Source: Obrimoposthia wandeli (Eukaryota). Taken from it: a stretch of 64,000 bases of DNA. The notes under the pieces were generated by a model, which was not told where the DNA came from, did no database searches, and was given only the letters and a program-made list of their open reading frames with translations. Shown one piece after another: positions 20,401 through 48,800 of this stretch; the first letter of the stretch is position 1; each line of letters begins with the position of its first letter. The position numbers and the translations under genes are program-made. The DNA lies in contig CDROCS010001696.1 in NCBI GenBank assembly GCA_977020255.1, positions 1,116,001-1,180,000 on the forward strand. Direction: 5' to 3'.

Positions 20401-23400
20401 TTTCTGTTTAACAAACACTATGAACAACAAGTAAACAGCAGTAGGTGGATGTGTCCGGTCTAATCCACCCCTCTCCCCCTCACCCCCGGTGGGGGCTACC
20501 CCACTGTCCTTTAAAACCGTGCATGTGTGTGGAGTGATATTTCATGCATGTGTGTGTGGAGTGAATTTTTCTATCACCCCCCACCACTGTAAAAAACTAA
20601 TTAACCCCATTTAACACCCTTTAAAATTGAAAATCTCATAGTACTCCCGCAGAGTGAGGAAGTGCCTGAGGCCATCTAAGGGCCAACGCGTGCTCTTCGG
20701 ATCCGCGGTAACCTGACAAGCAATACATATATACAGGGTCTTAGACTTTACTTTACGTTGACGTTTCACGATCAACTTCTTAAAAGGCATTGCAAATTTA
20801 TTTTTTATAATTGTTCTCTATTTGTTTATAAACAGTTACTACCTTAGAATTAAATATGTCTGTCAAAACATGTAAATCAGCTGAGCAAGCTTGTGTAAAA
20901 TCAATAAATATATGCCCATGTGCTTGTTTAGCAGCATCATGGAATGAATCAACAAGAAACTTCTTATTTTTGGGAAATGCCTGTCTGGCCACGAAATCTA
21001 CAACTGTTTGATCTCTAGGATTTTTAAATAAAACTAAGTAATGTACATTAAGATTTCTTGTTCTTTGGTGACCTCCTTGGTGAAAAAGATTTTGAGTGAT
21101 AAATATAACTGTTACTTCACGATGTCTTACAATCTTTGTAAATAAATTATTGAAGTCCGATTCCTTGTTAGCTTTCTGATACAAATCATCAATTATTATT
21201 ACATCTTCTTTTTTCAATCTTTCACACCAATTTGCATCAAATCCTTCAATAAATTTTATTCCCTTCAACTTGCAAACTTATGTTTTGATTAATCCGATTT
21301 CCCCTCCTCCACCATGATGCCAATAAATATTTTTGAAACTAAAATTTAAAAGAGATTCATTTTGCAACAATTTACATACGAAATGTGTCTTTCCACTTCC
21401 ACTGGGACCAACTATTTGAAATACAGCATTATTATTTAGCTCCATTACATATACTCTTTCATTTTAATATTGTTTATATTATCATAGAAGTTTTCTTATT
21501 GAAATGTACAATGTTAGAGCTATTATAGATGAAATAACGTGTAATCTAACCAATATTTCAATGGTATCTTTTGTTATATCATTATTTTTTAATTCTGTTC
21601 AAATTTGTTTACCCTTAACTTTTTCCACTTCATTGTCTCTATTTATAGTATTATTCATTTGAAACAATAAGTTAAACGGGTTTGTTTATAGAAAAGATAA
21701 CAAGATGTAATAAGATATATTTTCTAAAATCTAAATTACAATGTCTGGATAATCAAAATTTTTCAATCCCAATATCATAACTTTACCACTGGAAAATATA
21801 TTTACACATATCGTTTTAAACTTCAAATAACTGAAGGCAGGAAAAATTTCTGGTTCAAACATGCATTCTTCTTTCATTTTCTCTGCAATTTTAAAAATAT
21901 TTATTTGTTTCCCAAGATTAGCCGAAATTGTGATTGATTGTATTGTAGTGATTCGAATTCCAAATGGTAAATTGATCTCTAGCAAAGGTATTTTGCATCC
22001 CATAACACGACAACTTCCTAACAGAATTCAATATAAAAATAAAATACTAACCTGTAGGAAAAATAACAACTGTGAAATTGTCAAACCTTTTTACATATTG
22101 TCTCGGCTTCCATTCATTGAATGGTAAGTACGAAACATCATCTTCTATACTACCTTTATAATTTAAATTTTAGAGTTTCATTAGACTAACATTTTATTCT
22201 GTAAATTCTTATTTATATATGTCTGAACCTGCTTTTTTATTGCGCATTTCTTGTAATTATCTTGCAAACCTAATATAATTGGATGATATATTTCTTCCAA
22301 TAAATTTTGATTTTTAATATGGATTTAGTCCAATCAAATTTAATGCTTTAGTTATATTAACCAATGAGATTCATGTCTTTGTTACAAATTAGTATAAAAG
22401 AATGCGCCATTGAAGGACAAATCACAATAAATGGATTCATATCAAAGACAATTATCAATGATGGACGATAGCCAACGGATATTAAGCGGCGACGAAGATT
22501 TAGAAATGTTTGAAGAATCGGATAAGGATATGTATGAAGAAGTGAAACAATATTTCAAATACAAAGTCAGATTCTTGAAGAAGGCTCAACTGATTGCTTT
22601 AGAAATCTTGTGACAATTGAAAGAAGAAAGTTCAGCTACTATCTATCAAATATTCAAAAAACAGATTTTCAATATCTTAAACAGAAAGTTGAAAAGGTAG
22701 TTCCAAATTTTACTTTCAATAAGAACGAATTTTATATCCGAGGACCCGATGAAGCATTTCTAGATGACTATGGAAGATATGTTGATATTGATGCGTTTCC
22801 AAAAAAAGAAGCAATGGGCTGTAACTATTCGACTTTATGGTTTCAAGAAAGATGAAATGGGAACAAAGTTGCCTATGTAGAAAATTGAACGGGCTCATAT
22901 TTCTATGTTTTAACTTTTTTCGTTTGCGTGTAATAAATTGTAATCGGTTTTACTATATTTCTTTCATTTGGCAATTAATAATCAGTTTTATTTTTAAAAT
23001 ATTTGTATCTTATAGTAAATCTTATGTATTTTTATCTTATATGTATTCATTTATAAATATTGTTTTTAATCAGTTTCCTTATTATAGAATGGATAAGAGA
23101 TGTGTAGCAAATTTTTATTATCCAGAAAGAATTTCAAAAGGAAAACTATGTAATATATTAAAGAAGCATCAAATTATACGAGTTATGAATCCTGTGAAAA
23201 TATCAAAAGTGGAGAATAAATATTTCATCGAAATTTTAACAACATCTGATATTTATCAATTAAAAAAATATTTTTGGATTTTACATTCCTGATTATGTAT
23301 ATGAAGGAAATTTTTCCCAGCTTGAAACTGATCCCAGTCTGGCTTTTAGAGATGATCTAGGATATTTGATTGCTCCAATTTTAGATGTAGAACTATGGAA

Positions 23401-26400
23401 TATCTCAATACGTCTCTATCGATATTTTACTGATGACGGGAAAATGCAGCCTCTTTGGACTTTGAGTGAAGCCAATATGGTGTTTTATGTTTGATTAAAT
23501 AAATGTTTTGAAAATAATTTTGTTTTTCACCTCTAAATTATATATATATCTGTAGTAATTTATTAATCTAAAATCTTTCTTTAAAAAAGTAGTAATATAT
23601 TCACATAAACATATTATTGGAAATCTCGTCTGTGATAAGCCGCCGGGGTCAATATGGATTCCCGTGGTCTTATCTAATCACCTTTGAGATTAGCAGTAAA
23701 TTTAAAGTAAAATTTTTAAAAATGTGGGGGTTACCGCCCCCTACCCCTTCGGGTGGAATGGACACACACATGCACGAAATTTCAATTCCCACACATGCAT
23801 AAAATTTCACTCCACACACATACACGAAATTTCACTCCACACACATGCATGGTTTTAAAGGACAGTGGTAGCCCCCCCGGGGTGAGAGGGTGGATGAGAC
23901 CGGACACATTCACCTACTAACAGCTTAACCTATTGAGTATCCTAATTTAATATCGCCAATGAGACCACAACCTTATGACAATTTCTGTTTCTACTACTAT
24001 TTATAGTTAGGATAATTTAAAAGAGGAAAAAACAGAAAATATATGGAATAAAAACCAGCAACATATATACCAGTAATTCGAATGATGTACTCGCGAGTTT
24101 GATAGAGCACTGATTTATCAACAGTTTGCTGAGAAACCAATTTGAATATAGTGGAAGTTCGACTAATTGCATCAAAAGCAAAATTGTGAAATTGGTTAAT
24201 TTATGATAGTAATACAAAATTACGCTTTTAAAATCAGTAAATATTTTAAGATTAAAGCTAATAGTGGAATGCGAATGAGTTCGATTGACAAAGTTACTTG
24301 TAAGCGCTTGGAAGAAGTCAAGGAAGTTGTGTTTCGGTTTGACAGTGAAACCTTTCTTTGGTTGATAAAGCTTTTGTGGCTATTCACGTAGGAGAAATAA
24401 AATATACAATTTCTAAACAATGGTTATATGTTCCTTATCAAAAAATCCAGCAGATATTTTCGTGACAGATACATATACTCGTGACAGCGAAGCATTTCAA
24501 AGTGCTAAATATAAATCACGGTGGAATGGATCACAATTTATATCAAAAGCTATCAAAACAAGAGTGAAAATACATAAAAGGAGCATATAATAGCATTAAT
24601 CACTTCAGTTTCAGATGGTTTCCAGGTGGAGATTTATACCTGTTTTGGAAGATTAGTGAGAGCTTGGATTATGAGATTTATTAATAATTGTAAAGTTATA
24701 CAGAGGAGACGGAAATTAACGGAAACAAATTTAAATCAAGGCCCATGTCTCAAATAATGACTCCATTGGCTAGTTTTCGTTTCAAAGAACCATTAACAGC
24801 ATTTGCAACAGTTAGGGATATATTTCGCTGGGCCATTTTTGATCAAGCAAGGTAGAAAGAAAACATGTGAAAATATATATGCTTGTTTATTTACTTGTTT
24901 ACAAACGAGAGCCGTTCATTTGAAACTAAGCTATGGCCTGAACACTGATTCATGTGTAGATGTGGTCGACCAAATACATTTATATCAGATAATGGGACAA
25001 ATTTTGTGGGAGCTGTGAATGATTAAGAGCTATAGATTGATGGACTCAAGGTACAGAAAGAAATGGCAGTTAACAAGATTAGGTAGATATATTTTCCTTC
25101 CGAAAAACCATATTTGGTGGAATTATCGAAGCTATGGTAAAGTCGGTGAAGCGAGCCATGTATAAGATCTTGAACAATGTCAATGTGACTGATGAGGAAT
25201 AAATCACCTCGTCGTTTTGATAGAAGTAGAACAGCTGGTAAATTCAAGACCAATTGGTTATAAAGGAACAAATGAAGATGATACCGAGGCATTAAATCCC
25301 AACCCCTTCATTATAGGCGAAGGCTTCACAAATAGCTAAGATGCCGTTGAGGTTCATTCAAAAGACTAATCAACATTTATGGAATCAATGGATGGAAGAG
25401 GTTGTTCTTCTATGGGATGTGTGAGATATGTGGTGTGAGGAAAAGAATCCTTGCGAATAAATTATGTTGTTTTAATTTTAAACAATAAAAATGAAAGAGG
25501 AACTTGGGCACACATAACGATTTTTGGCTCAACCCTCTACTCCTTGAAGTTATGTTCTCGAGTGGACATTTTTTAGCGATTACAGAGACAAGGTCCATGT
25601 CATGGACTTTGCCCCAGTATTCGATCAAAAGGTGTCCTCTCGAGAACATGACTTCAATGGAGTCTAACGTGAAGTTCTCGAGTACACTGTACACTACTGA
25701 CCAATTTTGTCCAACCCCTTGATCAGGAGATTATAAGAAGTTTCAAAGCAAATTGGAGGAGAAAACCTTTAAAGAACGAAATAAAAAATTATGAATGAGA
25801 AGGTTGACATAAACGTTTTAGAAGTAATAAGTTTAATATCAGAATCGTGGGATCCTGTAAGTGGTGTCACCATTAGAAACTACTTTAAAAACGCCTTCAC
25901 AAATGATCGTGTTGTTGAAGTCATTGAATATGACGTTAGTAAAAAGGAAATCAGTAAAATATAAGTTTAATTAGGATTGGAACATAATTCAGATGAAGTT
26001 ATCCATGTTAAAGACGATCTAAATGAGCTCTTCGAAAAGCCCAATTTTGAAGAACTTTTAAAAACCAAGCCCAAGAAAAAAAAACGCTATTTTTGAAGTA
26101 GAAAATGTGAAGGTTTATGAAGTGAGAAAAAATCAAAATCACGATAATCTACTTGAATGAAACTAGTTGAGTTTTAAGTTGGCTTCAAATTTTTCATAAT
26201 TAAAAGTGTCTTTAAAATGTATTTTATCTGATTACTTGGAAAAATAATTGGTTAAATTATTCGAATAAATACAAATAATTTATAATGCAATTGATTTCAA
26301 AAGAATTATGATTTCTAGTTAAATAAATTTTCAATTACAGCATACCTTTATTTGTAATCCCAAATTATGTATAATGCGAAAGTTAGTTGTAATTCGAAAA

Positions 26401-48231: not shown

Positions 48232-48303
48232 ACAAAGACATGTAATTTAAAAATATATGTTCAAATAGTATAAATAGAAGAAATCAGTTTATAATAATCA
48301 GAA

Positions 48304-48800
48304 ATGCTACTTCACAATATCAAATTAGTGAATATTAATTACAAGGGAATGGTTGTAAGTAACATTCAACACTTACCATTTCGGACTTCGAAGCCTCATC
48401 AGTATCGACTCAAGTGTGAAGGTTACACTATTATCATTTTCAAATCTGGTAATTTATTTTTACATTTATATATAATTATAATTTAGGTACATGCAGAATA
48501 ATGGGTTGCAAAACAGTGCTGGATGAAAGCAGTCTTCCTTTAGATATAAAAATCGAAAAAATCCAATCAATCAGTCTCAGTAGCAATCTATAAACATCAA
48601 TAAACCTGAACAAGATGAGTAAGAGTTTGGGATCGGAAGCTGTTTACGAGCCAGAAATCTTCCCAGGACTTCGATACGTCAAATACAATTCACTATGCGT
48701 GAACATTTTTGCTAGCTGGAAGATTATGATACTTGGTGTTAAATCTTTAAACTATGAGTATCTGATTGAATGTATTTTGTTTAATATAGATCTTCACACT
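48304..48800 (+). pseudogene. TBP-like protein gene with a 38-nt intron
   Basis: NINYKG...IIFKSG|intron 48449-48486|TCRIMGCK...YEPEIFPGLRY...CVNIFASWKIMILGVK. One in-frame TAA near 48591. Confidence 0.82.

Follow-up and report, generated by a model that had tools for sequence, protein, structure and literature searches.

A window of 64,000 nt from the genome of Obrimoposthia wandeli (contig CDROCS010001696.1, positions 1,116,001 to 1,180,000) holds two broken copies, A and B, of a shortened TATA-binding protein (TBP) gene of high-copy Polintons. Both are interrupted at the same Gly codon by a short GT..AG segment, which to judge from its sequence the host spliceosome most likely removes as an ordinary intron. 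The intron is probably a lineage-limited passenger and not a required switch, and taken alone it is a modest finding; most of the interest lies with the system of the shortened protein (here mini-TBP), for which a complete TBP saddle is predicted, and with a promoter motif found before other gene classes of the same elements. The two segments had been pointed out in an earlier note on this DNA, and their positions are confirmed (22051-22018, minus strand, in copy A; 48449-48486, plus strand, in copy B). Each splits the Gly codon after its first base (phase 1), between IFPT or IFKS and xCRxMGCK, and its removal restores the frame. The interiors of the two segments differ, the one in copy A being 34 nt long with 18% GC and that in copy B 38 nt with 8% GC. 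Each copy is broken, as had been noted, but copy A contains two in-frame stops (22172-22170 in exon 1 and 21733-21731 in exon 2) where one had been reported; copy B has one, at 48591-48593 in exon 2. The Pfam TBP model matches exon 2 of A and B above cut-off (E 1e-12 and 1e-7, respectively), and exon 2 of copy A also matches solved TBPs.

The interruption at the glycine codon

The 1.35 Gb genome gave 31,150 first-look candidates for family A and 26,119 for family B, with at least 150 close copies of each. A canonical GT..AG segment is present at the Gly codon in 24 of the 30 best family-A loci and in 28 of the 30 best family-B loci; two of the latter 30 lack exon 1. The interruption is beyond chance, because only 88 of 2829 sampled host positions are a GT with any AG 30-45 nt downstream. 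The family-A segments are 32-44 nt long and are spread over the three modulo-3 length classes (14, 9 and 7 loci), and therefore no single frameshift signal explains them. When 33 copies of A, 28 of B and 10 of a third family, D, were aligned, 8 recurrent indels (ie shared by at least two copies) were found in about 112 nt of intron, 7 of them not multiples of three, and none among the 22 indel events in about 1,100 nt of exon; it tells against the intron reading that the intron indels fall in T-runs and short repeats, so that part of their recurrence may be mutational. Split frames that are free of stops and interrupted by GT..AG occur in 11/28 A, 17/27 B and 9/10 D copies. Between families, the conservation of exon 1 (about 45-60%) matches that of exon 2. 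The segments thus show what is expected of U2-type introns, ie GT..AG ends, a pyrimidine-rich 3' end, restoration of the frame, and a length that is free while the exons are constrained.

The segments had been described as host-sized by reference to a 36-nt host intron at the start of the window (Table 1). That intron exists, but the match is to the host's shortest class only. The element introns are at the extreme short end, because introns of the host TBP family measure 47 and 48 nt, plus one of 43 nt (counted by eye), and none of 36 host dynein introns, sampled roughly, is below 53 nt.

Family D (35-43 nt) and a metagenomic contig, L173 (40 nt), also have the Gly codon interrupted, in each case by unrelated sequence; no sequence is common to the interiors of different families, and the intron-bearing families are about 50% identical to each other in amino acids. 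Families C, C2, F and G of the same genome, ie at least four intronless sister families, read straight through. They are numerous, and the copies of F are near-identical, ie recently amplified. The public loci sampled were 81, the best 80 of 195 metagenomic matches and one viral locus. A call was obtained for 72 of these (68 uninterrupted, 1 interrupted and 3 unclear), in a sample whose ranking by best segment favours intronless genes. A Polinton core gene is present in 35 of the 81 loci, among them 25 of the 36 that are at least 3 kb long and had any match. With 43 clusters, and with 66 representatives at E up to 1e-30, the family of proteins is a broad one, and IMG/VR gave one distant locus. 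Conservation of the intron across divergent Polinton lineages, as proposed in the earlier note, therefore stands for A, B, D and L173 but is not family-wide. The note had also named uninterrupted homologs as one observation that would count against its reading; these exist, and they bear on the idea of splicing as a control point and not on the intron itself. Because at least four sister families in the same genome and 68 of the 69 metagenomic loci with a clear call read through, splicing is not a universal control point, and no sign of regulated splicing was found.

Comparison with the host TBP gene, its paralogue and a TRF2-like gene, which had also been suggested, showed no intron at the Gly codon in any of them; their introns lie elsewhere, as do those of cestode TBP genes (PMC13134418; for this and the other papers cited, statements refer to the part of the source that was available). 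Besides the TRF2-like gene, the host set comprises two head-to-head TBP genes and two divergent TBP paralogues without introns (L268 on C238, L064, L065, L269-L270). Several Brf-like loci are also present in the host genome, and the host TFIIB core is split by introns.

Some smaller observations concern the junction. Among 15 of the 37 joints from four sequencing runs (one sample, contigs only) none matches the intron; the runs cover genes and spacers alike, as DNA would, and are uninformative on expression. The comparison with reads covered element B except for a part upstream of the IAP-like gene. In contigs of these runs at window position 48477, a different AT-rich stretch resembling an intron comes before a B-like exon 2; from the sequence this is probably one more intron-bearing family. 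Precise intron loss was considered for 12 copies of families A and D with short or in-frame spans, among 16 loci, and rejected, these being imprecise deletions or short introns. In one family-A copy (L315, C2335) an exon-exon-like join leads into a short duplicate that is rearranged. This is best read as templated DNA repair and was not counted as evidence of splicing. Twelve of 150 representative proteins begin at a Met right after the junction, a hint of more split genes that contig ends or frameshifts would explain equally. Finally, members of an open reading frame (ORF) family that usually lies beside the TBP-like gene are themselves interrupted by a short GT..AG intron, which follows a Gln codon (often Pro-Gln). 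Counted by eye, this is so at 7 of 11 metagenomic loci (L126, L129, L130, L134, L139, L143 and L153, the last with two copies), and in all seven the TBP gene is intronless. This second intron was not seen in the own-genome copies, and the ORF gave no usable match in Atlas.

The mini-TBP and the promoters of its elements

The protein chosen for folding was an intronless sister protein belonging to family C (L074, 144 amino acids), in an alignment with 43 relatives. The model (predicted local distance difference test, pLDDT, 94.7) is a full two-lobed saddle, in agreement with the TBP fold claimed in the earlier note, and its DNA-binding Phe residues and TFIIA/TFIIB surfaces were inspected as that note had advised. 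Every Foldseek match displayed with E <0.001 is a TBP chain, and VIA placed all 144 residues over residues 66-238 of yeast TBP (Z 13.3-13.8, root-mean-square deviation 2.5). Repeat 1 keeps its strands and lacks helices H1 and H2, including the basic H2, there being no helix before residue 82. Three of the four DNA-bending Phe are kept in the alignment, F39 (38/38), F98 (44/44) and F114 (43/44), as are both Glu of the TFIIB-side stirrup, E96 in 44/44 and E94 as 40 Glu and 4 Asp of 44. Residues that are fixed and specific to the family include P24 (37/37), R45 (36/38), M47 (42/42) and N112 (44/44), and the DNA-facing positions N6, R45, M47, S69, T71 and N112 are fixed as new residues (register by eye). 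The roles of TBP residues assigned to these positions are in part presumed from general knowledge of TBP. In cellular TBP the two stirrup Glu contact TFIIB and the basic H2 patch is the site of TFIIA, TAF1, Brf1, Mot1 and NC2 (PMC7221094), the Mot1 and NC2 surfaces being described in PMC4565979.

More distant Polinton TBP-like proteins (L179, L187, L189 and kin) are 10-25 residues longer at the positions of H1 and H2. This suggests a stepwise loss of the helices, with their presence in the basal members judged by length; the longer, basal L187 gave a pLDDT of 33 when folded as a single sequence. A profile comparison with host TBP aligned one repeat only.

In 114 upstream windows the top enriched 6-mer was ATAAAC (57 against 6.5 in shuffles). 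When promoters were then compared with one element per lineage and a window of 10-90 nt before the gene, the form ATAAAC(A/G) was found to precede the packaging ATPase in 19/20 cases, the basic core ORF in 8/10 and the putative major capsid gene in 14/14, compared with 0/24 for the TBP-like gene and 13/249 host tiles. A canonical TATA box is found before 15 of the 24 TBP-like genes. As a correlation, this layout fits an early gene read by the host, whose product would read the late promoters. The earlier suggestion that the protein redirects or blocks host transcription is less likely than reading of the element's own promoters, given that the motif is specific to gene class.

With cellular and archaeal TBP (PF00352; 1cdw, 1ytb, 2z8u) the mini-TBP shares the two-repeat saddle, the (Y/F)EPExFP stirrup including both Glu, three Phe out of four and both (S/T)GK turns. 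It is, however, about 29 residues shorter, without H1 and H2 of repeat 1, has Pro for the first Phe and several changed and fixed DNA-facing positions, and its intron site is unlike those of host and cestode TBPs. The viral TBP of herpesviruses (vTBP; ORF24 of KSHV and kin, PMC12529657) is likewise a TBP mimic with a polar, Asn-rich DNA face, in viruses whose early genes use host-type promoters. ORF24 reads a non-canonical late-promoter motif, as the mini-TBP is here proposed to do. ORF24 is nevertheless large and multidomain, keeps four Phe, is without the TFIIB Glu and acts together with five further viral factors (PMC12529657), whereas the mini-TBP has some 145 amino acids and the Glu pair; by analogy it may work like the herpesvirus vTBP, without being a member of that family. 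TBP-like proteins of large double-stranded DNA viruses (PMC7221094; BFVD matches) are also two-lobed and have also lost the eukaryotic N-lobe regulator signature, but they have diverged at the TFIIB positions, which are canonical in the mini-TBP, and are often paired with a viral TFIIB (PMC7221094). No TFIIB gene was noticed in the Polinton elements, where no profile search for TFIIB was made.

Proposed mechanism and its alternatives

The mechanism that we regard as probable, with clear reservations, is that the host transcribes the mini-TBP gene early, with splicing in families that have the intron, and that the protein binds the late motif and recruits host TFIIB and Pol II while avoiding the regulators of the N-lobe, the intron being a lineage-limited passenger. 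Host TFIID would read the TATA/CCAAT promoter of the mini-TBP gene. In the intron-bearing families the transcript would have to be spliced, because retention ends the frame. The mini-TBP would then bind the late motif via a re-tuned, more polar concave face, and the acidic stirrup, which is kept, would recruit host TFIIB and Pol II and so turn on the packaging and shell genes. Without the basic H2 surface, the protein would escape control by TFIIA, TAF1, Mot1 and NC2. Evenly balanced, in our judgement, is the broader proposal that animal Polintons of a widespread clade follow an early/late programme of the herpesvirus type by means of a single 145-residue TBP that has shed the regulatory helices of its N-lobe and is re-tuned to ATAAAC(A/G). 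The early genes (mini-TBP and neighbour) would have acquired mini-introns spliced by the host, each at a fixed site, and in some lineages these would put the master late switch under host splicing.

Several points weigh against this mechanism. The link between protein and motif is a correlation, and the motif counts cover TBP-bearing elements only. Host TBP could itself read TATAAAC. The enrichment of CCAAT is weak, at 8/24 TBP-like genes and 35/153 host tiles. The protein that was folded is the intronless family C sister and not a spliced product, and the position of the first DNA-bending Phe is occupied by Pro (P24, by the register by eye). It has been argued, moreover, that viral TBPs in general do not recruit host TFIIB (PMC7221094).

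One alternative is that the mini-TBP is a decoy or dominant negative which sequesters TFIIB or occupies host TATA boxes (shut-off), host TBP reading the late motif. The kept Glu pair and the lost H2 surface would suit such a role, as would the closeness of TATAAAC to a canonical TATA box and the neighbouring IAP-like and phosphatase-like genes, which are of the host-manipulation kind. We consider it unlikely, since the concave-face residues are changed yet invariant in the family, which suits a new specificity, since the motif keeps strictly to its gene classes and is missing from the promoter of the TBP gene itself, and since an element with thousands of resident copies would pay heavily for host shut-off. 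That the intron is instead a regulated switch, its retention controlled by tissue, stress or Piwi-interacting RNA (piRNA) and gating the activity of the element where present, is quite improbable. Regulated splicing of the P element is a precedent, a retained intron shifts the frame in L173 and, in A, B and D, ends it within 1-12 codons, the TBP-like gene stands at the top of the inferred cascade, and the position is kept across lineages that are only about 50% identical. Against the switch are the numerous intronless families C, C2, F and G, with F so recently amplified, and the intron interiors, which are unrelated between families and drift freely.

The remaining alternatives concern the nature and history of the segment. 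That it is unspliced, as a gene-killing insertion or a frameshift or readthrough signal, is very unlikely: both window copies are broken and splicing is deduced from DNA, but the lengths fall in all three frames, the GT..AG ends are kept in four lineages although the interiors are unrelated, the two exons are each conserved, and in many copies there is no other stop. Recent capture of gene and intron from a host TBP or TRF gene is extremely unlikely and is already contradicted for this host. The host TBP genes have the same G/GT word at this codon (the slash marks the junction), but they read through it, cestode introns are elsewhere too, and the close relatives of the mini-TBP gene are element-borne and widespread. 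Independent gain, several times, at a hot spot formed by the latent G/GT donor in the Gly-Lys-Cys motif is rather doubtful; it concerns history only and is compatible with the mechanism preferred above. In its favour, intronless genes have GGT at the codon in 48 of 96 cases, the interiors are unrelated, and L173, which comes from another data set, pairs with the intronless L136 (support 95/92 and 96/92). A tree of linked genes (23 elements, LG+G4) rejects a single intron clade (p-AU 0.003). The TBP trees (29 of 80 rows kept, junction columns masked), in which A and B are sisters (support 86/77 and 81/81, and 97/82 in the tree of 80 rows), do not reject it (p-AU 0.24 and 0.16). Each gene moreover has 2-5 latent G/GT and 5-10 MAG/R sites, the twin site in repeat 2 among them, but in the loci called no intron was seen at any of these others. 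All four intron-bearing lineages also share the loss of the Lys after the Gly (Lys in 1/66, against 82/96 in intronless genes). The sequences suggest that the intron most probably arose once, at the latent donor, and was then spread or lost patchily via module swapping, which is more economical than parallel gain. The best TBP trees need 2-3 intron changes, and with the rejection by the linked genes this speaks against a single origin.

Expression of the capsid module is a question behind the debate on Polintons as real viruses, and it becomes directly testable with a factor and a motif that can be named and an early/late contrast. The mini-TBP is a natural minimal TBP, with the TFIIB side kept and the TFIIA/Mot1 side dropped, that should be useful in structure-function work on TBP. 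The intron, present or absent at one codon in families that coexist, can serve as a marker and makes intron gain and loss in a virus-like element tractable to study; annotation that is blind to it calls such split genes dead. In the literature, 'TBP' is found as a label in PMC8502044 (Fig. 5 legend) and in its preprint, Maverick core genes are described as intronless (PMC8097293), and intron-bearing cargo genes are reported in nematode Mavericks (10.1101/2022.07.12.499685). The Polinton papers found, in the parts available, hold no analysis of the TBP family, of the motif or of intron presence and absence at a fixed codon, although the supplements of PMC8502044 may annotate such genes; the main text of PMC10748475 and PMC11131425 is without 'TBP' or 'TATA'. 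The introners of dinoflagellate Polinton-like elements (PMC11957031) are also spliceosomal introns inside elements, but they form repeated transposon families, whereas the mini-TBP introns are below 45 nt, AT-rich, unrelated between families, at one site and with no terminal inverted repeat (TIR) evident by eye.

The elements and other features of the window

The elements share with described Polintons, Mavericks and adintoviruses (PMC8502044, PMC8097293) the TIRs, a 6-bp target-site duplication (TSD; in the mini-element of copy A), a retroviral-type (rve) integrase, an A32-type packaging ATPase and, in relatives, a protein-primed PolB. Every family examined sits with Polinton ATPase/integrase modules; PolB lies beside modules of families A, B, C and F elsewhere in the genome and is absent within both window copies. 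The mini-element of copy A is bounded by an inverted-repeat pair, has an identical 6-mer at both flanks and sits among exons of a host ankyrin/double-zinc-ribbon gene (domain matches). Element B has no matching TSD, and no PolB between its arms. CCAAT-type words are found farther upstream of the TATA-like box of copy A, and further copies of the late motif in element B are at 51334, 51796 and 54229. The capsid candidates are conserved ORFs in the order expected for Polinton jelly-roll capsid genes. The capsid and core labels in element B are ones we presume from this gene order and from general knowledge of such elements.

Table 1. Coordinates of the elements, genes and signals in the window
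Feature	Position	Strand	Remarks
Host intron for size comparison	673..708	+	36 nt, in frame, two stops inside
3.5-kb non-autonomous Polinton derivative with copy A	20440..23918		TIR-bounded, 6-bp TSD
Packaging ATPase of mini-element, broken	20816..21445	-	71% identical to element B ATPase
Copy A exon 2	21686..22017	-	Pfam TBP; premature stop 21733-21731
Copy A intron	22018..22051	-	34 nt, phase 1, GT..AG; if retained, stop in next codon
Copy A exon 1	22052..22181	-	ATG at 22181; in-frame stop 22172-22170
Copy A TATA-like box, canonical	22213..22219	-	about 35 nt upstream of start; putative function
11.3-kb Polinton copy with copy B	44609..55912		38-nt inverted arms
Neighbour ORF family, usually next to TBP-like gene	45930..46316	-	some relatives with own short intron
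IAP-like gene (BIR + RING), interrupted here	47419..48213	+	Pfam domains
Copy B TATA-like box, canonical	48269..48275	+	35 nt upstream of start; putative function
Copy B exon 1	48304..48448	+	48 codons + 1 base
Copy B intron	48449..48486	+	38 nt, phase 1, GT..AG; if retained, stop after 12 codons
Copy B exon 2	48487..48869	+	Pfam TBP; premature stop 48591-48593
Dual-specificity phosphatase-like gene	49340..50188	+	domain match
Candidate late-promoter motif YATAAACA	50684..50691	+	35 nt before ATPase; putative function
A32-type packaging ATPase	50719..51366	+	domain match
Basic ORF, putative core protein	51366..51791	+	position and composition; no Pfam match
Retroviral-type (rve) integrase	51892..52662	+	domain match
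Putative minor and major capsid genes, in pieces	52915..55235	+	conserved gene order; no Pfam match

In many elements the core ORF and the integrase are separated by a small Met-Gly...Cys-Cys ORF (51822-51890, and relatives) that follows the late motif; from its sequence the product is possibly myristoylated. Tandem repeats of 16 nt before the ATPase cluster and the repeated word ACAAAGACA near several element promoters (50162-50376 and 48849-48988) are candidate sites for host factors. Fragments of other Polinton insertions (PolB, ATPase, integrase) were found at 59194-61092, 63658-63999, 13634-13924, 39007-39112 and 41931-42571, and Polinton elements are often nested or adjacent in the O. 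wandeli genome. The host genes in the window are a WD40_2-domain gene at 1-5620 and the ankyrin/double-zinc-ribbon gene, with an Fn3-associated domain and long introns, at 11024-33432.

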